Part shown: piece after piece, positions 1 to 58,107 of the stretch | Layout of the letters: the number at the start of each line of letters is the position of its first letter | Numbering within the stretch: the first letter of the stretch is position 1 | DNA from: Candidatus Enterousia sp. | GTDB lineage: Bacteria > Pseudomonadota > Alphaproteobacteria > Rs-D84 | DNA: 64,000 bases | Direction of reading: 5' to 3' | Assembly: GCA_045636045.1 (NCBI GenBank) | Contig: JAZTWT010000019.1 | Location: 15,355-79,354, forward strand | Notes under the pieces: model-generated | Database searches by the model: none | What the model was told of the DNA's origin: nothing | The model's input: only the letters and a program-made list of their open reading frames with translations | Translations under genes and position numbers: made by a program

Positions 1-966
1 CTTATCGGCCTTTGCTTTTGCATCTGCTGCCGCATCAGTCTTCGCAGTTTCAATCGCCGATGTCAAAGTTGTGTTCTGCTGTGAAACAACACTTTCCAAC
101 ACATCAACTTCGCCCTGTGCTTTATTTGCTGCTGTCTGTGCCGCTGCAGCTTCTGTAACAACTTCTTTAATAGCCCCAACAACTGTAGTTGCATCTGTTC
201 CCATATTGGCTGATGTCACAGTACCCAAATTAGTTTCAACTGTCTGAATCTTATTTGCAACAGAGCCCTCTGCCGAGGCGTTATTCATGTTTTGAATTGT
301 CTGATTTATTTCAGTTTTTGCTGAATTGATTTGTGCCGCTATAGAACCAGTCACATCTGTACCACCCATCAAAGTACCAATATCACTTTCTGTACCACCA
401 ACACGATCCTCCAATTCTCCAACACTAACACTCAAACCGTCAGATACTTGCTTTAATTCATTGTCAATCATACTGTATGTCGCTTTGGCAGACAAATATT
501 TTGTATCATCTTCTTTCGTTGTGGCATCTTGAACTTTCGCATTCTGAATCATATTACCAACAATTTGTTTTTCATTCAACGCATCCTGCAAACCAGAAAC
601 CTTACCAATCGAAATTGAATCTACAACCGCATCTGTAATCTTACCTGTCGTTCCAGTAACCGCACCATTTTCCTGTTTAACAGTCAACACAACCTTTCCA
701 TCTTCAGCAACTGAACCATTTAATGCATTAATTTTACCATCAATCTGGTCAGAAACAGACCCTGCGCCAGAACCTGCAACCGTCCCCAACTTTGTATCCA
801 AGGCTTTAACAGCTTCCGTCAAGTTCTGTGCATTTTTTGCGATCTGCGCATCTGCAAATGACACATCACCAGTACGTGTTGTAACATAATCAGTTGATGC
901 GATTTCTGCGCGTGCCGCGGTCACCGCCATAATTGCAACCAAAGATGCAGTTAATATTTTTTTCAT
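1..966 (-). CDS. Secreted fibrous repeat protein, array member 1 (5' part only; C-terminus lies beyond window start)
   Basis: Open at the window edge, so absent from the ORF track. My reverse-strand translation from ATG 964-966 (RBS AGGAAGGA upstream) reads MKKILTASLVAIMAVTAARA then EIASTDYV: a Sec-type signal plus the S-T-x-Y-V motif. The block DDTKYLSAKATYSMIDNELKQVSDGLSVSVGELEDRVGG parallels DDKYLSAKATYAAIDNQLTAVSNGLQLSVNALDQRVGD in the next gene. Confidence 0.75.
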   Translation of the reverse strand, partial: MKKILTASLVAIMAVTAARAEIASTDYVTTRTGDVSFADAQIAKNAQNLTEAVKALDTKLGTVAGSGAGSVSDQIDGKINALNGSVAEDGKVVLTVKQENGAVTGTTGKITDAVVDSISIGKVSGLQDALNEKQIVGNMIQNAKVQDATTKEDDTKYLSAKATYSMIDNELKQVSDGLSVSVGELEDRVGGTESDIGTLMGGTDVTGSIAAQINSAKTEINQTIQNMNNASAEGSVANKIQTVETNLGTVTSANMGTDATTVVGAIKEVVTEAAAAQTAANKAQGEVDVLESVVSQQNTTLTSAIETAKTDAAADAKAKADK

Positions 967-1016
967 GTTTTCCTTCCTTTCTTTTTGTTTTATTGTTCTC
1001 TTTCTCTTCGAAACCT

Positions 1017-1046
1017 ATTTTATCATAAAATGCGAATCGCTGTCTA
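1017..1046 (-). promoter_or_regulatory. Putative sigma70-type promoter of array member 1
   Basis: The reverse strand reads TAGACA-18 nt-TAAAAT. The spacer begins GCGATTCGC and ends TTTTATGA. Confidence 0.35.
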
Positions 1047-1072
1047 TAATAAAATTTCCTAATTTTGTTTTT

Positions 1073-2512
1073 TTAACGTCCGGCAATATTTTCCCACGCA
1101 TATGTGACCTGGTCACCCTTTTGCGTGGCGGTCAATACATACATACCGTCTTCGGTACGGGTCTCGTATGCCGGAACCTCAAACTTCTTCTCCAACGTTG
1201 TCGACAAATCCTTAATCTTGGCAACTGACAATTCACCATCGTTAATTGTTGCATTCGTCACCGCACCGGCCGCAATTGTACCGGCCGTCACCGCATTCTG
1301 TGCCAAGTTTCCAGCCTCAACCGCACCGGCGGCCAAATTTCCCGCAACAACTGCACCATCTGCAATCGTCCCTTCGGTCACTGCATCCGCCGCAATTTTA
1401 CCGGCGGTCACTGCATTTGCCCCCAATTTATCAGATGTCACGGCACCGTCATTAATCTTTTCCGTCGTAACCGCAGAATCCGCAATCATACCTGTTCCAA
1501 TACTTTTTGATGCAATTGAAATATTACCAGACGCATCTATAACAATAACACCATCCGCACTGGTCAATTTCACCTGTTTTGCATCCAATGCCGCCTGCAG
1601 TCCATCAACCTGGGAAATCGCAATTACCGGGATATCAGACGCCACCAACGCCGCACGTGTCACGGTAATAACACCATTTTCCTGGGATACAGATTTAACA
1701 AATTCTTTGGCAACTGGTTCGTCAACATTTTTAAGTGCCGCGATACGATCAACAACCGATGTGTCACCAACTTTATCTTCCAGTGCACCAATTCTAACAC
1801 CATGTCCTGCAACCGTACCCTGCAAACCAGTACCACCGGTACCATCTTCACCGGGACCAACACTACCCAAATCTTCGGTCAACTTCTTAATTTGGTTATC
1901 TGTATACGCCTTGGCATCTGTCAACTTCTGTGTTGCCGCCGTCTGCGCTTCGAACAATTTATCCGCCGCATCTTTTGAATAAACATCGGCAATATTGGCC
2001 TTTAAATCAATATTTGCCTGCAATGCATTATCCGCAGATTCACGTGCTGTTTTTTCAGCCGCGATTGCTGTTTCATTCGCAGCAACCTTAACATTTGTTG
2101 CATCTAATGCAGTCTGGTCCGCTTTCAGGTCAATATTCGCCTGCAAATCCGTTTTTAACTTAGAAATCGACCCCTCTCCATTTCCATTCAAGACCTTAAT
2201 TTCACCTTCTGCATCACCAACACGCTGATCCAATGCGTTAACAGACAACTGCAAACCATTAGAAACAGCAGTCAATTGATTATCAATCGCCGCATATGTT
2301 GCCTTGGCTGACAAATATTTATCATCCGCTGCCTGCGTCGTCGTATCTGTTGCATTTTCCGATAACACCATATTAGACGCAACCTGCATATCCTTTAATT
2401 CCAACTCTAATTTATCATTTAAATATTCCGTAGAAACAACGGCCGCTTTTGCCGTACCGACAGACACCAGTCCCAACAACAGGGTAAAAATTCCCGCGGT
2501 CAATTTTCTCAT
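1073..2512 (-). CDS. Secreted fibrous repeat protein, array member 2 (decapeptide AVTxGxIAxG repeats)
   Basis: ORF 1073-2626. Start moved to the internal ATG at 2510-2512 (MRKLTAGIFTLLLGLVSVGTAKA, AGGAAGG RBS). VVSTEYL motif after the signal. Ala/Asp/Leu/Gln-rich core, about 9 tandem 10-aa repeats, and a C-terminal GMYVLTATQKGDQVTYAWENI module. Confidence 0.8.
   Translation of the reverse strand: MRKLTAGIFTLLLGLVSVGTAKAAVVSTEYLNDKLELELKDMQVASNMVLSENATDTTTQAADDKYLSAKATYAAIDNQLTAVSNGLQLSVNALDQRVGDAEGEIKVLNGNGEGSISKLKTDLQANIDLKADQTALDATNVKVAANETAIAAEKTARESADNALQANIDLKANIADVYSKDAADKLFEAQTAATQKLTDAKAYTDNQIKKLTEDLGSVGPGEDGTGGTGLQGTVAGHGVRIGALEDKVGDTSVVDRIAALKNVDEPVAKEFVKSVSQENGVITVTRAALVASDIPVIAISQVDGLQAALDAKQVKLTSADGVIVIDASGNISIASKSIGTGMIADSAVTTEKINDGAVTSDKLGANAVTAGKIAADAVTEGTIADGAVVAGNLAAGAVEAGNLAQNAVTAGTIAAGAVTNATINDGELSVAKIKDLSTTLEKKFEVPAYETRTEDGMYVLTATQKGDQVTYAWENIAGR
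1208..1504 (-). repeat. About 9 tandem 30-bp (10-aa) repeats, consensus AVTxGxIAxG, inside array member 2
   Basis: The translation reads ADSAVTTEKINDG AVTSDKLGAN AVTAGKIAAD AVTEGTIADG AVVAGNLAAG AVEAGNLAQN AVTAGTIAAG AVTNATINDG ELSVAKIKD. Confidence 0.85.
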
Positions 2513-2543
2513 ACTAAATCCCTTCCTTCCTTTCGTATGGTGC

Positions 2544-2573
2544 ATTATATCATATTTACCCGAATCGCGTAAA
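2544..2573 (-). promoter_or_regulatory. Putative promoter of array member 2
   Basis: The reverse strand reads TTTACG-18 nt-TATAAT. The spacer begins CGATTCGGG and ends AATATGA. Confidence 0.35.
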
Positions 2574-2659
2574 GCAAAAATATAAATTTTTTTACAAAAT
2601 GATAAAAAAAGGAGCAGATTACCCACCCCTTTTTTTATATCAGAATCACATTCTGTTAA

Positions 2660-3658
2660 TTACAAAGACAATGCCAATTCCATCCAGTATGGCTGTCCAG
2701 ACCCATCAACCGACAAAACGCACTTTTCATTTGCACAGTTTGCGTTTGGCTTTGGGATTGCATAACCTTGGACAGTTGTCTTAGCAGTATTCGCAACCGA
2801 ACCAGCCTCAGTATCTGCAGCGTTCAACTTTGCAATCGCATCCTGATTTGCTTTTACTTCTGTATCTTTCAATGATGTCACAGATGTTGACACATCCCCA
2901 ATCATTGCAACCACAGTTTTACCATCGGCAACTGTACCAATCTTTGCCTCGATTTTATCATCTTCTGTTTCGGCATAACTTTTTGCCTGTGCCAGAATAC
3001 CGGTTGTCTCATCGGTCAAACCTTCAATCGCTTCCTTATTCCCTGTCGCGATTGTATATGTCGCCGCCAAACCAGTTGCTTCATTATCAACTTTACCTGC
3101 CAGACTTGTTAAATCAGACGCATCTGCCTTACCCTGCAATGCAGTATCTAAGCCCTGAACCTGTGTCTGCTGAATAACCGCATTTGCAATTTTATATGCA
3201 ACAGAACCTTGCTTTGATGCATCCACATCGTTCAACAAAGCGATATCAGATTTATTCGTCGCAACATCCTGTACCAATGTCGCAACACCATCCACACCAC
3301 TTTCACCACCCAACATGTTGATTGCTTGAGTATTTGCAGCAATATCTTCACTCTGTTTCTTATCAACGCCAGCCTGAGTCGTAACAAACTGATTGTAAAC
3401 AGATGTATCTAATTTGAGCCCCAATGCAGATTCCACACCCTGTGCAGCAGTCTGCGCATCAGCTTTGGTCTGATAATCCTTTGCAACATTTGCTTCTAAA
3501 GCTACAACGTCCTGAGAAACTTTACCAACCTTAGCTTCAACATAGCCTGTTGAAGCAACGCTAACCGGTTTCGCTTCCCCTTCTGCCATTGCAGCGCCAG
3601 ATGCCGTCATCAGAATTGCCGCCATAACGCCTGAAAACATAATATTTTTAACTTTCAT
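2660..3658 (-). CDS. Secreted fibrous repeat protein, array member 3
   Basis: Signal MKVKNIMFSGVMAAILMTASGAAMA. VASTGYVEAKV motif. Ala/Thr/Asp/Gln-rich core. C-terminal EKCVLSVDGSGQPYWMEL module. Confidence 0.8.
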   Translation of the reverse strand: MKVKNIMFSGVMAAILMTASGAAMAEGEAKPVSVASTGYVEAKVGKVSQDVVALEANVAKDYQTKADAQTAAQGVESALGLKLDTSVYNQFVTTQAGVDKKQSEDIAANTQAINMLGGESGVDGVATLVQDVATNKSDIALLNDVDASKQGSVAYKIANAVIQQTQVQGLDTALQGKADASDLTSLAGKVDNEATGLAATYTIATGNKEAIEGLTDETTGILAQAKSYAETEDDKIEAKIGTVADGKTVVAMIGDVSTSVTSLKDTEVKANQDAIAKLNAADTEAGSVANTAKTTVQGYAIPKPNANCANEKCVLSVDGSGQPYWMELALSL

Positions 3659-3730
3659 TGTCTTTCCTTTCTTTTCTTTCTTTTTTTTAATTACGCCACA
3701 TTCATTATGACGGCGAATTTAAGTTTTGTA

Positions 3731-4822
3731 TTACTGCGCCTGTGGTTGCACCGTTGTCAAAGACACTGGCTGTCCATTAGCACCCAAAATCTGAATTGGC
3801 GCATATGATACCGCACCTGTTTCAGTAAAGTTTACCAAATAAGTACCTGGCTGTTTGATATTAGAAACCTTCATCGCAACTTCATCTTTTGTCGCCAAAT
3901 CATCCAGGTCACCAGAATCCGCCTTACCTGCCAACGCAGTTTTAATCGCAGCCTGGGTCATTGTACCATCTGTCGCATCACCTTCGGCTCCATACAACTT
4001 TGTCAAACCTTCTGTTTGTGCCGTACCAACATTATATGTCGTATTATTATCAGTTGCACTAATCGTGTAAACACCATCTGCAAAATTGACAGAAACACTT
4101 TCTGAACCCGAAACAACATTCGCCGCGGTCAAAGTATTCTGTTTCTTTCCTAATTCCGTATCAACCTCATCCTTGGTGTAAACATCTGCAGAATTTGCCT
4201 TTAACGCAATATTTTGTGTATTTTCTGCAACCTGTTTTACCAAACCAGAATTCTCATCACCAACTGCGATTTGCAATTTTGAAACTTTGGTCACAATACC
4301 TTCATCGACACCTTCTACACCCTGCAGGGTATCAACCACCTTGTCCAACTCTTCGATATCTTTTTCAGCATTGGTGACGCGTGTATCTAATGCACTTGTA
4401 ATTGCATGTACAACACCACCTGTCACCAGACCAGTATTACCTTCTGCAACTTGCCCATCTGCTGTCACTGTGATTTTATTATCAGCAACAGAAACATAAC
4501 CTTCGCCCTCATATTCGGTATTATTGTCGGTAATTGTATAAACACCCGTTTGGTCATTAAATGAAACAGCATTACCATTAATGGCCGAACCTGTTAATTT
4601 CTTATTAACTTCTTCTTTAGTTGCCAAATCAGACAAATCAACATCAATTTTATTATCTTCGGAAATTGTCACATTACCTTCTGCAACCAACTTTGCCTGC
4701 AATTTAGCATCTGCATAGTCTTTTGAAATCAAAGACACATCTGCTGCTGCACTGGCCGCCCCACAAACTGTGGCAAAAATTGCCGCCGCAAAACCCGAGA
4801 ACATTACATTTTTAATTTTCAT
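3731..4822 (-). CDS. Secreted fibrous repeat protein, array member 4
   Basis: Signal MKIKNVMFSGFAAAIFATVCGAASA. LISKDYADAKL motif. Repeated YTITDNNTEY / YTISATDNNTTY segments. C-terminal PGTYLVNFTETGAVSYAPI module. Confidence 0.8.
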   Translation of the reverse strand: MKIKNVMFSGFAAAIFATVCGAASAAADVSLISKDYADAKLQAKLVAEGNVTISEDNKIDVDLSDLATKEEVNKKLTGSAINGNAVSFNDQTGVYTITDNNTEYEGEGYVSVADNKITVTADGQVAEGNTGLVTGGVVHAITSALDTRVTNAEKDIEELDKVVDTLQGVEGVDEGIVTKVSKLQIAVGDENSGLVKQVAENTQNIALKANSADVYTKDEVDTELGKKQNTLTAANVVSGSESVSVNFADGVYTISATDNNTTYNVGTAQTEGLTKLYGAEGDATDGTMTQAAIKTALAGKADSGDLDDLATKDEVAMKVSNIKQPGTYLVNFTETGAVSYAPIQILGANGQPVSLTTVQPQAQ

Positions 4823-4865
4823 CTTTCCTTCCTTTCCTTTTTATGGTCTTACCGACCTATTTTGT

Positions 4866-6002
4866 TTACTTCAAAATCTCTACTGATAACCAGGTAACAT
4901 TTCCTTCCGCATCAACACTCATCAACAGTGTTTCACCCGGTTTCGGCATTCTACCTGCAATCTTTTCCAATGTGACCGCATCAGGTTGAATCTGGTCTGC
5001 AGCAACTGAATCCTTGGTTGCCAACACCCCCAATTCATCCGTCTTGGCATAACCACCCAGCTCGGATTCAGTCACAAAATCCGCAGTTGCTGTTGTAATC
5101 GCACCCTGAACTGCTTCTGCATCTTGATAACCTGCCCCCTTAATAGCAGCAATATCAGCAGTATTCGTACCAACCTGGGTCTGCAATTTTGACAAATCGC
5201 CGGCAACAGAATTAACCTTGGTCACAGCTGTATCCGCAATAGTCTGCGCAACCGCAATCGAAGGAAACTTCTTCGCCTTGTCCTCTGTTGTCATTTCTGC
5301 CAATTCTTCTTCTGTAATTGTCGAAACCTTATTTGCCGCATCTTCCTTGGCATCCAATTTAGCCAGGAAACCATCAATCGCATTCTGCAATTCTGTCAAA
5401 GCAGACACATCCGCCTTGTTAGACTGCAGGGCGTTTATCGCCTGATTTATACTCTGCAAACTTTCCGCCGTCAAATAATCACCAGATGCCTGCTTCTTTG
5501 CAATTTCTGCTAACAAATCTTCCTGTAAATCTAATAATTCTTGACTGGTGGCCAAACCATCAATTGATGGAATTTCTGGTGCATCAACTAAATCATTAAA
5601 TGAACCAGTCGTCGCAACAGTTGCCAACCCTGAAATATTTTCTGCCGGCAATTTATTTTGCTCATTAATAACTGGATGTTTACCCTGCAACCCATGATAC
5701 AATTCATTAATCGCCGGGATTGCCAACTTCTGATTTGTTTCCAACTCTATCCATTGACCTGTATTATCTTGGGCATTCAACATATCACGCACTAATACCA
5801 AACGCCCATTCAACGTATTCAATCGATCTGCCAGCTGGTTATCTCGACTATAAAGGGTGTTATCCTTGGTATTAACATGCCCCACAACGCTTACTACCTG
5901 GCTATCAACGTATTCCTTGGTCGCATAACCATCTTCTGAATACGCCGCCCTAGAAGCCATGGCACAAAGTAAAGACACTAATAAAAGATTCTTTTTTCTC
6001 AT
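4866..6002 (-). CDS. Secreted fibrous repeat protein, array member 5
   Basis: ORF 4866-6044. Start moved to ATG 6000-6002 (MRKKNLLLVSLLCAMASRAA). YATKEYVDSQV motif. VATTGSFNDLVDAPEIPSIDGLAT motif. C-terminal GETLLMSVDAEGNVTWLSV module. Confidence 0.78.
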   Translation of the reverse strand: MRKKNLLLVSLLCAMASRAAYSEDGYATKEYVDSQVVSVVGHVNTKDNTLYSRDNQLADRLNTLNGRLVLVRDMLNAQDNTGQWIELETNQKLAIPAINELYHGLQGKHPVINEQNKLPAENISGLATVATTGSFNDLVDAPEIPSIDGLATSQELLDLQEDLLAEIAKKQASGDYLTAESLQSINQAINALQSNKADVSALTELQNAIDGFLAKLDAKEDAANKVSTITEEELAEMTTEDKAKKFPSIAVAQTIADTAVTKVNSVAGDLSKLQTQVGTNTADIAAIKGAGYQDAEAVQGAITTATADFVTESELGGYAKTDELGVLATKDSVAADQIQPDAVTLEKIAGRMPKPGETLLMSVDAEGNVTWLSVEILK

Positions 6003-6056
6003 TGCAAATTCTCTCACACTACTAAATTTATCCAATCCCAACAATTAAAAATAAAC

Positions 6057-8078
6057 TTACCAGCCACCATCATCACCCCAATCGAAACCATCGCCACTAG
6101 AACCAGATGAGCTTACAGTTTTCCACGAATACGAACACGTTTCAGTTGTACAGGTTGCCACCAACATATAATCACCGATTGTTGTTGGTTTTGTTGGGTT
6201 TGCAATATACTTATCCGCCGACGAATACGCAGCAGACCCCAGCCCCTTAACCGCAACGTCCACACCATTAACCGCCAGCGTACCATTCGCACCACCTGGC
6301 ACAACTGTCACAACAGCAGCATCCGCCTTGTCCAAAGAAGCCTGAACCCCTTCTGCCAAAGCCGCCTTAGCAACAGTCCCTGCTGCAATATTCGCACCAT
6401 TCAGCTCACTTGCTGCGGTCAAATAATCACCTTTTGCCTGATATTTAGAATCCAGCGCCGACAACTGTTCAACGGTTGCATATCCCGACAAATCGATCGA
6501 ACCACCAGTTGCCGCTTCCGCAATCTTCTGATCAACCTCAGCCTTGGTATAAACTTTGCCTGTCAATTCCGCCAAAGAATCCGACACCGTTTTCAAGCCA
6601 GCCGCCGTCGCATAATCACCCGACGCCTGCTTTTTTTCAATCTCAGTTTCTAACGCAGTACGCAATGCTGATAACTGATCACTTGTCACCAAATCAGACA
6701 GCTGCTCTGTTTTTGCATAATCTGTCAAATCAACATTCGCAGAAATCGTATTATCTTCTGAAATACTGATATTTGCCCCAGGCGTTAACTTATCCTGCTT
6801 ATCCTGCAATTCTGCCTTGGTCGCTAAACCATCAATCGATGGCAATTCCGCCTTGGTCGCAAAAGTCTTTGCCGATTCCAATGTCACATAATTATCCGCA
6901 ACAAATTGCTTAGTTGCATATGCATCCAAACTAGGAATATCAATCGCATTGATTGCATTCTGCAATCTTAACTCAACTGCATCCAATTCTGACTTCTTGG
7001 CATAATCATCACTAATTGTCTTTAATGACGCCTTTAACCCTTCAACAACCGATGCATCCGCCTTGTTAGTTTTTAACAACTCTATCGCTGCATTAATTTC
7101 CAACAAATCATCAGATTCTAACTTTGCTTCAATCGCTGCTTGCAACGCTTCCTGAACCTCTGCCAAGGCCGCCGTATCAACCAGACCATCAGTCGATGGC
7201 AATTCCGCCTTGGTCGCATAATCTGTCAAATCAACATCCGCAGAAATCACATTGCCAGAAATCGTAATATTCTGACCCGCCGTCAATTTATCCTGCTTTC
7301 CCGCTAAATCATCTTTTGTCGCCAAACCTGCTGTTGCTGAATCAATCGCCGTCTCAACCTGCCCTGCGGTCTGATACCCTGCTGCCTTAATCCCTGCAAT
7401 ATCTGTTTCCATACCTGAAATATCAGCCGATGTCACAAAATCACTGTCATTCTGCAACTGTGAAATTTTTTCTGGAATTGTCGGCGTGTCTTTCAAGCTG
7501 TTATAAGAACCCGTGGTTGCAACCGCAGCCAAATCAGTCAATTTAACATAACCATCCAAACTTGGTATAATAATTGCATTGATTGCATTCTGCAATCTTA
7601 ACTCAACCGCGTTTAATTCCGACTTCTTGGCATAATTTTCAATAATCGAATCTACAGATGCACGTAATCCCTCTATGGCCACATTATCAACACCACCTGC
7701 CTGCAAACCTTCTACAACCACCTGCAAATCTTCCAACTGTTTAACCGTTGCATAATCGCCAGCCACCTGCTTGGCCGCAATCTCATCCTGCAAAGCCTTC
7801 TTTACATTCTGCAAATCTTCATCTTTTACAAACGTTGCAAAATCAGGAAGTTCACCATTTTTCACAAACCCAGTGGTATCAACAACAGACTTAATCACAT
7901 TATTCTTAATTTCAATACCTTCACCTGCCGTCAAAGCACCTTGCTTTAATGCCAAGGCATCATCAACATATTTCTTGCTGACCAAATTTACAGTCGTAGT
8001 CGTCGCACCAGCAACACCGGACACAGCCATCAGAATAGCAGCCATAAATCCAGAAAAAGCAATATTCTTAACTTTCAT
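6057..8078 (-). CDS. Secreted fibrous repeat protein, array member 6 (673 aa, internally duplicated modules)
   Basis: Signal MKVKNIAFSGFMAAILMAVSGVAGA. LVSKKYVDDAL motif. VATTGSYNSLKDTPTIPEKISQLQND and KQDKLTAGQNITISGNVISADVDL motifs. The module ...AKKSELDAVELRLQNAINAI.IPSLD.Y occurs twice. C-terminal GDYMLVATCTTETCSYSWKTV module followed by a Gly/Asp/Trp tail. Confidence 0.85.
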   Translation of the reverse strand: MKVKNIAFSGFMAAILMAVSGVAGATTTTVNLVSKKYVDDALALKQGALTAGEGIEIKNNVIKSVVDTTGFVKNGELPDFATFVKDEDLQNVKKALQDEIAAKQVAGDYATVKQLEDLQVVVEGLQAGGVDNVAIEGLRASVDSIIENYAKKSELNAVELRLQNAINAIIIPSLDGYVKLTDLAAVATTGSYNSLKDTPTIPEKISQLQNDSDFVTSADISGMETDIAGIKAAGYQTAGQVETAIDSATAGLATKDDLAGKQDKLTAGQNITISGNVISADVDLTDYATKAELPSTDGLVDTAALAEVQEALQAAIEAKLESDDLLEINAAIELLKTNKADASVVEGLKASLKTISDDYAKKSELDAVELRLQNAINAIDIPSLDAYATKQFVADNYVTLESAKTFATKAELPSIDGLATKAELQDKQDKLTPGANISISEDNTISANVDLTDYAKTEQLSDLVTSDQLSALRTALETEIEKKQASGDYATAAGLKTVSDSLAELTGKVYTKAEVDQKIAEAATGGSIDLSGYATVEQLSALDSKYQAKGDYLTAASELNGANIAAGTVAKAALAEGVQASLDKADAAVVTVVPGGANGTLAVNGVDVAVKGLGSAAYSSADKYIANPTKPTTIGDYMLVATCTTETCSYSWKTVSSSGSSGDGFDWGDDGGW
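6859..7636 (-). repeat. Near-identical co-linear block shared with 8406-9349 (array member 6 copy)
   Basis: By manual alignment, 6859-7199 matches 8406-8746 with about 9 mismatches in ~341 bp. 7201-7307 matches 8799-8905, and 7447-7563 matches 8958-9074. A weaker second copy of the first segment starts near 7545. Confidence 0.85.
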
Positions 8079-8107
8079 CTTTCTTCCTTATCCCCTGCAA
8101 ATTTTAC

Positions 8108-10078
8108 TTAGTCAACCACAACATTAACCCATTCCGAAGTGCCATCAGATTTAGCCTGCAACATCATATAACCAGAAGTCGCTTCACCCGCCGCACCTAA
8201 ATCCAACATACTTGGCACAACCTGACTCTCTGCACCCTTCTTAACATAATCCTCAGATGCCGTCGCAATCAAACCTTGAACCTGCGTCGCCGTCTGATAA
8301 CCCGCTTTTTCCAACACCTGAACACGACCATCAATCGCTTCAACATCTGATACCGACGCTTTTTCAGCCAACGCAGAAACAATACCCTGAACATCCTCAC
8401 TCAAAGCAAAAGTCTTTGCCGATTCCAATGTCACATAATTATCCGCAACAAATTGCTTAGTTGCATATGCATCCAAACTAGGAATATCAATCGCATCAAT
8501 CGCATTCTGCAATCTTAACTCAACTGCATCCAATTCTGACTTCTTGGCATAATCATCACTAATTGTCTTTAATGATGCCTTTAACCCTTCAACAACCGAT
8601 GCATCCGCCTTGTCAGTTTTTAACAACTCTATCGCTGCATTAATTTCCAACAAATCACCAGATTCTAACTTTGCATCAATCGCCGCTTGCAACGCTTCCT
8701 GAACCTCTGCCAAGGCCGCCGTATCAACCAGACCATCAATCGATGGAATATCCAATGCCTCTAATTCTGCCTTGGTCGCCAAACCATCAATCGATGGTAA
8801 TTCCGCCTTGGTTGCATAACCAGACAAATCAACATCCGCAGAAATCACATTGCCAGAAATCGTAATATTCTGACCCGCCGTCAATTTATCCTGCTTTCCC
8901 GCTAATTCGCCCTTGTTCACATAATTTCCTAACTCTGTCGCAACAACAAAGTGCGCATCATTCTGCAACTGTGAAATTTTTTCTGGAATTGTCGGCTTGT
9001 CTTTTAAGCTGTTATAAGAACCCGTGGTTGCAACCTCAGCCAAATCAGTCGATTTAACATAGCCATCCAAACTAGGAATATCAATCGCATCAATCGCACT
9101 CTGTAATCTTAACTCAACCGCATCCAATTCTGACTTCTTGGCATAATCATCACTAATTGTCTTTAATGACGCCTTTAACCCTTCAACAACCGATGCATCC
9201 GCCTTGTCAGTTTTTAACAACTTTATCGCTGCATCAATTTCCAACAAATCATCAGATTCTAACTTTGCATCAATCGCTGCTTGCAACGCTTCCTGAACCT
9301 CTACCAAGGCCGCCGTATCAACCAAACCATCAATCGACGGCAATTCCGCCTTGGTTGCATAATTTGCCAAAATTGCATCCGTTTCAACCTTAGTATAATA
9401 ATCCGACAAACGCCCATTCAAATCAGTAATATCATCCAAGACAGCCTGCAAAGCCTCTTTAACACGCCCATCAAAATAATCCGATAATTTATATGGCGGC
9501 AACTGTTGCCCATCAACCGAAACAAACAACTCGCCCGTCGCCTCATCGAACACAACATCAGTCACAAAACCGGTCACATTCTTCAAATCTTCCTTCAAGC
9601 TTTCAACATCCAACTTAACTGCCGACAACTGCTCTGCCAACGTTTCTCCACTGGCTTTAAAATCAACAAACCCCTCCAACGCCGCAACACGATCACGCAA
9701 ATCATTACCCGAATTGGACGAACCACCAACATTAACACCACCCTGGGTCGAAGAACCACCACTAATCGCACTAGACCCCGACAGATACTTACCAATTGAC
9801 AAACGCGGTGTTGTGGCCGCACGCGTTGACCCCACACGCGTCGCACCTGCCGCACCATTCGAAACATTATTCACACGCATCGACCCCGCACGCACCGAAC
9901 CAGACATATCAACCGACGAATTACCACCAGACTTTGCCGCAACAGCACTTGAAGCACCATTATATGTACCCACACCCCCCAACGAGCGCACAGAAGATGC
10001 AGAAAACGCAGGCATTACCACCGTTGCACACATCACACACACAACAGACAGCATAGATATTTTCAGTTCGTTTTTCAT
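8108..10078 (-). CDS. Secreted fibrous repeat protein, array member 7 (656 aa, Ser/Gly/Arg-rich N-terminal region)
   Basis: Signal MKNELKISMLSVVCVMCATVVMPAFS. A Ser/Gly/Arg/Val-rich low-complexity region of about 100 aa follows. After that it has the same modules as member 6 (VATTGSYNSLKDKPTIP, KQDKLTAGQNITISGNVISA, duplicated LESDDLLEI.AAI.LLKTDKADASVVEGLKASLKTISDDYAKKSELDAVELRLQ). C-terminal SGYMMLQAKSDGTSEWVNV module. Confidence 0.85.
   Translation of the reverse strand: MKNELKISMLSVVCVMCATVVMPAFSASSVRSLGGVGTYNGASSAVAAKSGGNSSVDMSGSVRAGSMRVNNVSNGAAGATRVGSTRAATTPRLSIGKYLSGSSAISGGSSTQGGVNVGGSSNSGNDLRDRVAALEGFVDFKASGETLAEQLSAVKLDVESLKEDLKNVTGFVTDVVFDEATGELFVSVDGQQLPPYKLSDYFDGRVKEALQAVLDDITDLNGRLSDYYTKVETDAILANYATKAELPSIDGLVDTAALVEVQEALQAAIDAKLESDDLLEIDAAIKLLKTDKADASVVEGLKASLKTISDDYAKKSELDAVELRLQSAIDAIDIPSLDGYVKSTDLAEVATTGSYNSLKDKPTIPEKISQLQNDAHFVVATELGNYVNKGELAGKQDKLTAGQNITISGNVISADVDLSGYATKAELPSIDGLATKAELEALDIPSIDGLVDTAALAEVQEALQAAIDAKLESGDLLEINAAIELLKTDKADASVVEGLKASLKTISDDYAKKSELDAVELRLQNAIDAIDIPSLDAYATKQFVADNYVTLESAKTFALSEDVQGIVSALAEKASVSDVEAIDGRVQVLEKAGYQTATQVQGLIATASEDYVKKGAESQVVPSMLDLGAAGEATSGYMMLQAKSDGTSEWVNVVVD
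8406..9349 (-). repeat. Near-identical co-linear block shared with 6859-7636 (array member 7 copy), itself internally duplicated
   Basis: See the partner feature. In addition, 9064-9349 repeats 8470-8746 within the same gene. Confidence 0.85.
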
Positions 10079-10106
10079 GTTTTTATATTCCCTCTACTTG
10101 TTTTTA

Positions 10107-10136
10107 ATCTTATCATAAAATTCGAATCGGGGTCAA
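10107..10136 (-). promoter_or_regulatory. Putative promoter of array member 7 (and probably members 6-3 downstream)
   Basis: The reverse strand reads TTGACC-18 nt-TAAGAT. The spacer begins CCGATTCGA and ends TTTTATGA. Confidence 0.4.
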
Positions 10137-10163
10137 CACCCTTTTTATCTAAAGAAAGATTTT

Positions 10164-10850
10164 TTAGAATTCATACCGCAAACCAACCGAGAAAGAATTG
10201 CTAAAGATTGAATTAATATTAGTCTTCAACCAATATTCACCAGCATCTGATATACCACTGGCTTTAACATCTGGACCAAACATCAAAGATAAACGATAAC
10301 GAAAATCCAAACTTACACGCTCCGCCAATTTATGAGAATAACCGACCATCAAATCAAATTTTGGCGACACTATACGATCATCTGAATCAAACGTATGCCA
10401 CGCCAATTCAGCCTTTGGCAGCGCAACCCCTAAGCCTCCACCGACATAAACATTATTTCCAAAATCATAAATCACATTGACTGACAGATATGGTATCGTC
10501 AACTTAAAATCCGCACCATAACCACTATCCGTAAATTGACCAATAATACCAGCCTCTAATTCACCACGCCAATCTGCAGTCGCCATATTACCAATCGCCA
10601 ACGATCCCCCAAAAACAGATTCAAATGAAAAATTTTCAGATTTTCCATCCAAATCTACAACATCCGAAGAATACTTGTTCTTCCAATTTAACAATGACAT
10701 TTCACCACGGATCGTACCATACCAAGAACCAGCATCCGCAGAACGCACAGCATGCGATTTAACCGCATAACGATCCCCCGTACGCTGTGGCGCAGCAAAA
10801 GCTGGCGCAATTAACAATGCACAAACTGCAACAGATATAATTTTTTTCAT
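10164..10850 (-). CDS. Small outer-membrane beta-barrel protein (Omp25/OmpA-like barrel family)
   Basis: Signal MKKIISVAVCALLIAPAFA. Alternating hydrophobic beta-strand pattern and Gly/Tyr-rich sequence. C-terminus ...SVGLRYEF ends in an aromatic residue, typical of OM barrels. Confidence 0.65.
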   Translation of the reverse strand: MKKIISVAVCALLIAPAFAAPQRTGDRYAVKSHAVRSADAGSWYGTIRGEMSLLNWKNKYSSDVVDLDGKSENFSFESVFGGSLAIGNMATADWRGELEAGIIGQFTDSGYGADFKLTIPYLSVNVIYDFGNNVYVGGGLGVALPKAELAWHTFDSDDRIVSPKFDLMVGYSHKLAERVSLDFRYRLSLMFGPDVKASGISDAGEYWLKTNINSIFSNSFSVGLRYEF

Positions 10851-10957
10851 AGATTACCCCTTTTCCTTTTTTCCTAAGTATACCACAAAACCCCAATCAA
10901 CGAAACACAAAAAAACAAATATTGACCACAAATATTTTTTTTTATATATTCCAAGAC

Positions 10958-11752
10958 ATGGAAGAAAAGACAGCGATATCATTTGCAAATGTGGCGGCGC
11001 GTTACGACGAATCGCCAGAAATACTAACTGACGTATCATTTAATATCAGCAACGGCGGCTTTTATTTTTTATCTGGTGCATCTGGCGCAGGAAAAACAAC
11101 ATTGCTGCGCTTGATATATCAACTGCACCATCCATCACGCGGACAGATTAAATTATTTGGCCGCACCACTAACGACATGACCCGCAACGAAATAACAAAA
11201 CTGCGCCAAAAAATGGCAATCGTGTTCCAAGAATACTCATTATTATCACACATGTCGGTATTTGATAATGTTGCACTGCCCCTGCGCGTTCGCGGCACCC
11301 CCGAAGATAAAATAAAAAAACTGGTTGCCAAGGTACTGGATTGGGTTGGACTGGGCAAATACGCAGATTCAAATCCGAAATCATTATCTGGCGGTCAGCA
11401 ACAACGTGTTTCTGTTGCACGCGCAATCATCACACAACCCGCAATCCTGCTGGCGGACGAGCCAACCGGAAATCTGGACGACGAAAACGCAACACGCCTG
11501 ATGGAATTATTTGTTCAAATGAATAAAATGTTTGGAACAACAATTATACTGGCAACACACAGTAAAAAACTGATGGAAACCTATAAATACCCTGTAATAC
11601 AGGTTGACAACCACCGCGTAACATTTAGCGGCCAAGACACAACCCAAACATCAAAAAAAGACTCCGAACCCAAGAAAATTTGGCGTGGTCCAAAACCTCA
11701 AAATTACTTTAATGAATTATCAAAACAATTTGACGACATTGGGAACGCATAA
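10958..11752 (+). CDS. ftsE: Cell division ABC ATPase FtsE
   Basis: ORF 10922-11752 opens with TTG; I used ATG 10958 instead. Walker A GASGAGKTT, signature LSGGQQQRV, Walker B ILLADEPTGNLD. An FtsX-like permease follows after 2 nt. Confidence 0.85.
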   Translation: MEEKTAISFANVAARYDESPEILTDVSFNISNGGFYFLSGASGAGKTTLLRLIYQLHHPSRGQIKLFGRTTNDMTRNEITKLRQKMAIVFQEYSLLSHMSVFDNVALPLRVRGTPEDKIKKLVAKVLDWVGLGKYADSNPKSLSGGQQQRVSVARAIITQPAILLADEPTGNLDDENATRLMELFVQMNKMFGTTIILATHSKKLMETYKYPVIQVDNHRVTFSGQDTTQTSKKDSEPKKIWRGPKPQNYFNELSKQFDDIGNA

Positions 11753-58031: not shown

Positions 58032-58107
58032 TGGTGGCTAGGGACGGAATCGAACCGCCGACACAGGGATTTTCAGTCCCTTGCTCTACCAACTGAGCTA
58101 CCTAGCC
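58032..58107 (-). tRNA. tRNA-Phe (anticodon GAA), CCA encoded
   Basis: The reverse strand reads GGCTAGG TA GCTC AGTTGGTA GAGC A AGGGA CTGAAAA TCCCT GTGTC GGCGG TTCGATT CCGTC CCTAGCC A CCA. It folds into a full cloverleaf: 7-bp acceptor stem, D, anticodon and T arms, and a GTTCGATT T-loop. Confidence 0.93.

Follow-up and report, generated by a model that had tools for sequence, protein, structure and literature searches.

How do two neighbouring genes come to be almost identical in their middle parts and unalignable at both ends? The question is raised by a 64,000-nucleotide stretch of the genome of Candidatus Enterousia sp. (GenBank assembly GCA_045636045.1, contig JAZTWT010000019.1, positions 15,355 to 79,354 of the forward strand), referred to here as the window, in which a tandem array of genes for fibre-like proteins includes two members, g6 and g7, that share a block of direct repeats. 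By calling of open reading frames (ORFs) and translation, both genes are minus-strand ORFs, adjacent and co-directional; they are members 6 and 7 of an earlier first-pass annotation:

6057-8078, minus strand: g6, 673 amino acids (aa)
8108-10078, minus strand: g7, 656 aa

The word fibre denotes here a cellular, Sec-exported surface protein and not a phage tail fibre. We consider it likely that g6 and g7 are modular fibre paralogues and that non-allelic homologous recombination both rearranges their shared copies and keeps them similar.

The first-pass annotation had described the shared DNA from manual alignment, and ungapped counts bear the description out in nearly every respect. Between 6859-7199 and 8406-8746, 9 of 341 positions differ (97.4% identity), exactly as claimed, and the similarity continues co-linearly with 4 differences in 107 positions (7201-7307 against 8799-8905) and 6 in 117 (7447-7563 against 8958-9074). 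The repeat reported inside g7 is present, 8470-8746 differing from 9064-9340 at 11 of 277 positions, although the copy ends at about 9340-9371 and not at 9349. The diverged copy noted inside g6 is found as well (6917-7016 against 7547-7646, 15/100 differences, 85% identity). An extra segment of g7 also exists, but has a length of 51 nucleotides (nt), or 17 aa, where 52 had been given. It can be placed equally at 8747-8797 (PSIDGLATKAELEALDI) or at 8729-8779 (ATKAELEALDIPSIDGL), since the segment partly duplicates a linker, YATKAELPSIDGL.

BLASTN of positions 1-11000 against themselves pairs 6859-7310 with 8406-8908 (15 mismatches and one 51-bp indel, E=0), 6917-7230 with 9058-9371 (93.9%), 8464-8746 with 9058-9340 (95.4%) and 7447-7646 with 8958-9157 (89%), and a repeat-finding scan agrees with this picture. 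The block is more similar than its flanks, identity falling to ~35% within 20-60 nt beyond 6859/8406 and beyond 7310/8908. The remainder of the two genes differs, as had been proposed: the N-terminal DNA (residues 1-70 of g6 versus 1-239 of g7) and the C-terminal DNA are unalignable, at 47-53% identity. Comparison of the whole 64-kb window with itself gave no further long repeat besides the g6/g7 block.

Analysis by BLASTP and alignment shows that both genes carry the in-frame series alpha-beta-gamma-alpha-delta. The modules are connected by the recurrent YATKAELPSIDGL linker, the DNA of which constitutes a short repeat family (D3). The alpha module, of ~100 residues, occurs three times at 95-97% identity and once more as an old copy, alpha6a, in which just the last 31 codons (7554-7646) still match the others at 82-86% identity. 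The parts of g7, from the N-terminus, are:

aa 1-236, minus strand: N-terminal region with signal peptide and a Ser/Gly-rich conserved part, an N-terminal type kept in many homologues
9065-9361, minus strand: alpha7a, aa 240-338, YATKAELPSIDGL linker and four short helices
8945-9064, minus strand: beta, aa 339-378, 90% nt identity to g6 7434-7553
8780-8908, minus strand: gamma, aa 391-433, with the YATKAELPSIDGL linker at its end, 93.8% nt identity to g6 7182-7310
8729-8779, minus strand: 17-aa linker duplication (ATKAELEALDIPSIDGL) found only in g7, aa 434-450, offsets 1547 versus 1598, register ambiguous
8471-8728, minus strand: core of alpha7b, aa 451-536, 96.9% identical to alpha6b
8405-8470, minus strand: delta, aa 537-558, 1 of 66 nt different from g6 6858-6923, homology stopping abruptly at the distal edge
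aa 564-656, minus strand: unique tail, the distal part

Those of g6, in the same order, are:

signal peptide followed by aa 42-70, minus strand: gamma', from the BLASTP and alignment map
7554-7868, minus strand: alpha6a, aa 71-175, old diverged copy
7434-7553, minus strand: beta, aa 176-215, from the divergence analysis
7311-7433, minus strand: 41-aa insert found only in g6, aa 216-256, AGYQTA-type, resembling the g7 tail at the protein level only (BLASTP)
7182-7310, minus strand: gamma, aa 257-299, from the divergence analysis
6924-7220, minus strand: alpha6b, aa 287/300-385, from BLASTN and site comparison
6858-6923, minus strand: delta, aa 386-407, from the divergence analysis
aa 408-673 (266 aa), minus strand: unique distal part with a Cys-hairpin C-terminus, from the family alignment

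Synonymous divergence was suggested in the first-pass annotation as a means of detecting exchange. Calculated by the Nei-Gojobori method (dS, NG86), with substitutions counted per module and unevenness assessed by Fisher tests, it is 0.07-0.25 in the block, far below the saturated flanks, and heterogeneous with abrupt edges. The lowest values are seen for delta (1/66 nt, dS 0.07), for alpha6b against alpha7b (8/258 nt, dS 0.075) and for alpha7a against alpha7b (9/258 nt, 96.5% identity over the 86-codon core, dS 0.075), followed by alpha6b against alpha7a (15/297 nt over 99 codons, 94.9%, dS 0.115), gamma (8/129 nt, dS 0.14) and beta (12/120 nt, dS 0.25). The 3´ half of alpha6a differs from the other alphas at 13-17 of 93 nt (dS 0.53-0.80), and its 5´ half and both gene ends have 47-53% nt identity with saturated dS. 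Because synonymous sites are conserved in the block, protein-level constraint cannot account for the similarity. The divergence is significantly uneven along the co-linear block (9/18 synonymous sites for the 3´ half of alpha6a versus 4/56 for alpha6b/alpha7b, Fisher p=2e-4; beta against alpha and delta taken alone gives p=0.07 only), a pattern inconsistent with one duplication event covering the entire block. Furthermore, alpha7a is close to alpha6b and alpha7b and not to its positional partner, alpha6a, which implies at least one non-co-linear overwrite (gene conversion) or a nested duplication.

A second strain carries a different allele. The protein P0093 (458 aa) is the sole close relative of g7 found by either of two homology searches, and derives from L001, a 4113-nt ENA short-read contig (ERZ1767644) with a k-mer coverage of 1.85 that ends inside alpha6a. 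The gene order is that of the window (FtsX-FtsE-outer-membrane protein (OMP)-g7-start of g6), at 98% identity. Positions 142-3204 of L001 align to window 12119-9058 and positions 2922-4113 to 8746-7555, the overlap being the 283-nt alpha repeat; L001 thus has one alpha where the window has alpha7a-beta-gamma-alpha7b. Its g7 is shorter by exactly one 594-bp (198-aa) period, with the gap bounded by alpha7a and alpha7b. When six private changes are removed, the L001 alpha is 3 sites off alpha6b, 6 off alpha7b and 13 off alpha7a (277 nt), and so is nearest to the copy in the other gene. The strains differ at 24 of 362 positions over alpha7a (6.6%) versus 35 of 2700 in the unique flanks (1.3%; p=1e-8), which makes divergence in the repeat ~5-fold that of the flanks. 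A missing period, a mosaic alpha and excess divergence form the pattern that non-allelic exchange would predict, and lend it support at the level of sequence. A scan of JGI metagenomes with an exact alpha-module 23-mer and the g7 protein gave no close relative.

A sister species supplies independent evidence. Here, P0050, a protein of 795 aa from locus L004, has the same N- and C-termini as P0091 (431 aa), and the short allele has been assembled in two separate samples (L039 and L040) with the same synteny. The DNA of L039 and L040 matches that of L004 at ~99% identity apart from two differences, an 84-bp indel and an in-frame deletion of 1008 bp that joins two 342-bp repeats just 85% alike in L004. 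At the junction, 106 successive copy-1-like discriminating sites are followed by 121 copy-2-like sites, and the switch falls inside a 114-bp stretch identical in both repeats. As each half of the hybrid is ~99% identical to its own parent copy and the parents are 15% apart, the short allele is derived by unequal crossover. It represents a clean single crossover between intragenic repeats and is hard to ascribe to assembly. The 84-bp (28-aa) indel (L004 10520-10666 versus L039 2449-2510) is bounded by a repeat encoding KSADVAATYATK. Protein P0083, from a 1.7-kb low-coverage contig, represents a third allele with 9 extra residues in the segment that P0091 lacks and a different distal part.

The first-pass annotation had pictured repeat-driven conversion and unequal recombination, leading to shaft-length variants and mosaic evolution; the dS profile, the missing period of L001 and the crossover in the sister species support such a picture. 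In the mechanism we favour, RecA-type non-allelic homologous recombination would act among in-frame modules of the same orientation. Inside g7, and from one gene to the other, gene conversion would overwrite one copy by another, and its tracts would hold gamma-alpha-delta near identical in the two genes and alpha7a close to alpha7b. Unequal crossover would add or remove entire module periods without loss of frame (594 bp in the case of g7), and a g6 x g7 crossover, between copies that lie 1547 or 2141 bp from each other, would join the N-terminal part of g7 to the distal part of g6. Fusion deletions of 1547 or 2141 bp are predicted in this way and, like the 594-bp product, can be tested for by PCR or long reads. 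Gain or loss in frame is plausibly tolerated because the shaft consists of autonomous helix and beta-layer units joined by the YATKAELPSIDGL linker. By analogy with other variable adhesins, the variation may be selected for range of adhesion or for escape from host immunity or phages.

Some observations weigh against this reading. The contig of L001 is a low-coverage short-read assembly, and a wrong path through the repeats during assembly could imitate the missing period as well as the mosaic alpha. The L001 alpha is not a simple hybrid of a 5´ alpha7a and a 3´ alpha7b, and the 594-bp event may be a deletion or an insertion of beta-gamma-alpha. The same-species evidence comprises two strains known from assemblies, and the substitution counts per module are small. 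The window sequence alone, moreover, gives no direct evidence of turnover. This last point would suit a few recent segmental duplications of differing age with no continuing exchange, in which similarity simply reflects age: the three alpha copies are about equidistant (9-14 differences), and the graded dS could mirror duplications of different ages. However, several independent events with exactly nested boundaries would be needed. Such a history also leaves unexplained why alpha7a resembles alpha6b and alpha7b over the co-linear alpha6a, why the g7 alpha of L001 is nearest to the alpha6b of g6, and why the strains show a 5-fold excess of divergence in the repeat, and in the sister species there is a real crossover product. 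We find a history of duplication without exchange improbable.

Repeats are classic sites of assembly collapse, and the repeats of the window or the short allele of L001 could stem from short-read mis-assembly, a concern to which the k-mer coverage of 1.85 and the end of the contig inside alpha6a contribute. In the window, alpha7a and alpha7b share no exact run longer than ~52 nt. Such an origin is nevertheless very improbable, given that the window copies are 3-5% apart and lie in frame in intact 650-aa ORFs with different flanks, that L001 independently confirms the g7 N-terminus, alpha, delta and tail and the start of g6, and that the sister-species repeats are just 85% alike and their short form was assembled twice independently. 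It is scarcely credible that the similarity is upheld by direct sequence selection, through protein constraint or through an embedded RNA or DNA element, or that the differences were introduced by a diversity-generating retroelement (DGR). The alpha module is conserved family-wide at the protein level, but synonymous sites are conserved too (dS 0.07 versus saturation outside), orthologous alpha modules in other species are merely 30-50% identical, and Rfam gives no match in this region. Among the three similar alpha copies of the window, 17 sites vary, 16 of them by transitions that run in both directions without adenine specificity and one by a transversion, which points to ordinary mutation rather than DGR-type mutagenesis. 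No copy of a template repeat lies outside g6/g7 in the 64 kb, a search made without a dedicated reverse transcriptase scan. Exchange between paralogous modules thus remains the reading that we prefer.

What kind of protein is encoded by these modules? Pfam and NCBIfam gave nothing above threshold for the fibre proteins of the array. The beta-layers of trimeric alpha/beta coiled coils follow the consensus [aliphatic]-A-T-K-[polar]-[DE] (Hartmann et al., 2016, PMC4786415). A slightly relaxed form, [aliphatic]-A-[T/K]-K-x-[D/E], was counted 6 times in g6 (0.08 expected from 2000 shuffles) and 5 times in g7 (0.05 expected), an enrichment of ~70-100-fold. As in those coiled coils, the motif comes back between short stretches of helix. 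Each alpha module opens with one such motif, YATKAE, and holds another, YAKKSE. On this motif, the array proteins are probably segmented trimeric alpha/beta coiled-coil fibres, and their surface exposure is presumed. Structural comparison lends no support to a trimeric assembly: neither sequence nor profile searches of the PDB gave a relative of the array proteins, and an AlphaFold2 (AF2) monomer of g6, built from a 26-sequence alignment, has a mean predicted local distance difference test (pLDDT) score of 46, too poor for a fold search. The secondary structure in this low-confidence model nevertheless favours a fibre, as it consists of helices of 12-20 residues between loops; the gamma modules and the C-terminus form small hairpins.

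The C-terminus of the array proteins is a hairpin motif of ~25-35 residues. All array C-termini (e.g. 6057-6180 and 8108-8190, minus strand) end in G-x-Y/M-x-L…(5-8 aa)…W/Y-x-x-[IV], often with an acidic or aromatic tail, and in those of g6 type the hairpin is bracketed by two Cys. The motif may act in trimerisation or in anchoring. A resemblance to the T4 foldon (…SDGTSEWVNVVV versus …KDGEWVLL) was considered and rejected as a visual likeness only, as sequence tests gave no support: a profile of 17 C-terminal tails against the PDB gave no chain at E<=10, and hhalign against the T4 fibritin C-terminus gave a probability of 0.3%.

A phage tail-fibre origin was likewise dismissed. Mosaic phage tail fibres are, like g6 and g7, modular with conserved linkers and exchanged segments, and GAVT repeats in another array gene, g1, match PHROG families. 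However, tblastn of g6 against 50,697 phage genome records gave no match, and in the PHROG scan only g1 matches tail-fibre families, g6 and g7 showing weak matches to families of unknown function. The neighbouring genes (FtsEX, OMP, TolB) and the signal peptides indicate that g6 and g7 are chromosomal genes and not part of a prophage. The sequence IDGLATKVE is listed for 2C3F, the homotrimeric tail-fibre hyaluronidase of an S. pyogenes prophage (PMC4786415), and resembles IDGLATKAEL here, a motif-level likeness with no detectable homology.

The behaviour of the locus is reminiscent of several known systems. In the alphaproteobacterium Bartonella, the trimeric autotransporter adhesins BadA and Vomp are encoded, like g6 and g7, by modular repetitive fibre genes beside paralogues, and strains vary in repeat number and order. 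Long reads of the badA island showed strain-specific reshuffling of repeated domains beside badA-like copies, which was put down to recombination in a repetitive island and proposed to serve in varying the surface and adapting to the host (Thibau et al., 2022, PMC8859334). In Moraxella catarrhalis, two fibre-adhesin genes, UspA1 and UspA2, share internal cassettes and differ elsewhere, as do g6 and g7, and recombination between them yields UspA2H hybrid proteins (PMC3458076). Common to these loci and the present one are paralogues with high-identity in-frame direct repeats and indels or chimeras that end in the repeats. With type Vc adhesins in general, g6 and g7 share, at the sequence level, a signal peptide and a repetitive coiled-coil stalk with beta-layers.

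The differences are equally clear. BadA has a YadA-type C-terminal anchor and head, neck and stalk domains recognized by Pfam, whereas a Pfam scan of six complete array proteins at E<=0.1 gave no match to YadA_anchor (PF03895) or to a stalk, head or neck. Lack of the anchor rules out autotransporters of the BadA or UspA type for the array. In addition, all members of the g6/g7 array look intact rather than like pseudogene donors and lack described domains, and the UspA genes are unlinked trimeric autotransporters whereas g6 and g7 are adjacent and without such an anchor. The MAT fibres of Bdellovibrio resemble the array in being many paralogous signal-peptide proteins per genome, mosaic in structure, for which tip swapping has been proposed (Caulton et al., 2024, PMC10769870). 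MATs share a beta-rich N-terminal domain of ~130 aa and have beta-prism or beta-helix shafts, many with an S74 peptidase end (PMC10769870). In contrast, the N-termini of g6 and g7 are unrelated, the shaft modules of g6 follow directly after the signal peptide, the shaft is predicted to be helical, and the Pfam scan gave no Peptidase_S74 match. Judged by the description of MATs and not by direct comparison with Bdellovibrio proteins, absence of both the shared beta-rich domain and the S74 peptidase rules out MAT membership. With a defining feature of each known family lacking, the array acts like these systems and constitutes an undescribed family.

This family is abundant. Two database searches gave 566 and 678 relatives, and a family-alignment scan of species-representative genomes gave 34 loci, from 'Candidatus Enterousia sp.' and other metagenome-assembled genomes (MAGs) of Alphaproteobacteria, many of which were recovered from the colon, caecum or rectum of ruminants. 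Fibre homologues and synteny place the genome of the window in this group. Within Alphaproteobacteria, the position of the genus Candidatus Enterousia is uncertain. A screen for direct repeats of >=150 bp at >=85% identity covered 43 loci (the 34 of the scan, L002, L004 and seven metagenome contigs) and detected repeats within one gene at 14/43 and between adjacent genes at 6/43. Tandem-like direct repeats of 92-94% identity are also found outside called ORFs of >=150 aa, in L004 (466-837), well upstream of the array, and in L009 (19232-19589) and L025 (16162-16742), downstream of the matched gene and maybe among further array genes.

The first-pass annotation had raised the possibility of tip swapping, and across the family the same N-terminal type does occur with different C-terminal ends. 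The g7-type N-terminus (…SVRSLGG.GTY…PRLSIGKYL…) is joined to at least three kinds of C-terminus, including the g6 type in P0121, combinations that, as judged from sequence, document reassortment of heads and tips over longer time scales. The region in question (9370-10078, minus strand; SVRSLGG.GTY … SVR.GSMRV … TRAATTPRLSIGKYL) is strongly conserved across many species, and the shaft behind it is completely variable. The gene with this type of N-terminus is the first after the OMP barrel gene in L001, L002 and L003. One possibility is that the region may serve as an anchoring element.

Bacteria commonly gain antigenic and adhesive variation by reshuffling their surface fibres at repeats, and the mechanism itself is therefore not new. 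The novelty lies in the protein family, which is abundant, wholly unannotated and found at a conserved locus in widespread uncultured gut Alphaproteobacteria, and the array locus is likely to be a variable surface structure of these organisms. A more ambitious and, in our view, rather doubtful proposal is that the proteins make up an undescribed class of anchor-less, Sec-exported, trimeric alpha/beta coiled-coil fibres, encoded in a tandem locus of 5-9 genes that is conserved beside a small OMP barrel gene in Candidatus Enterousia-like gut Alphaproteobacteria, and acting as a cassette-exchange system. If this were true, frequent recombination among shared modules would make fibres vary in length and in the pairing of heads with tips inside one population, and an unrelated protein family would thereby provide a functional counterpart to BadA/Vomp variation. 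As a practical consequence, short-read MAGs of these bacteria will break or be mis-assembled at the array locus.

The remaining array members and the gene upstream of the array are:

starting at ~960 and extending past the window start, minus strand: g0 (MKKILTASLVAIMAVTAARA…), array member with signal peptide
1073-2626, minus strand: g1, array member with signal peptide
2660-3658, minus strand: g2, array member with signal peptide
3731-4822, minus strand: g3, array member with signal peptide
4866-6044, minus strand: g4, array member with signal peptide
10164-10850, minus strand: outer-membrane beta-barrel gene, 228 aa, Pfam OMP_b-brl (E=2e-7), directly upstream of the array

Since g0 runs off the start of the window, the array has at least seven genes. 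Signal peptides are seen in the translations at the N-termini of all seven, and g0-g4 show merely distant protein similarity to g6 and g7 (21-34%). The genes are tightly spaced, with intergenic gaps of 12-85 bp. The array lies downstream of the OMP_b-brl gene and divergent from ftsEX, with TolB further along, an arrangement that recurs in other species; synteny shows the position of the OMP barrel gene to be kept in L001, L002, L003, L004 and L039.

A scan for promoters and terminators in the array performed no better than on shuffled sequences. The sole internal terminator candidate is a 17-pair hairpin at 2602-2638 (minus strand), between the g2 stop and the likely true start of g1, an A/T-rich structure with 4 G-C pairs and a tail of no clear T-richness. 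The called ORF of g1 begins at GTG, and an internal Met at aa 39 (MRKLTAGIFTLLLGLVSVGTAKA, signal peptide) is the probable true start. The GAVT-type repeats of g1 are pentapeptide-like and span residues 326-479, and their matches to PHROG tail-fibre families reach E values down to 5e-10. The DNA coding for the signal peptides of g2 and g6 (3608-3669 versus 8028-8089; MKVKNI.FSG…) is 79% identical, and in this type of signal peptide M1, F8, S9 and G10 are invariant across 26 homologues, a degree of conservation uncommon among signal peptides. Every 2-kb bin shows negative GC skew (cumulative -7.3); as the skew has no turning point, the window contains no replication origin or terminus. The window has a GC content of ~41% and carries one tRNA, at 58035-58107 on the minus strand.

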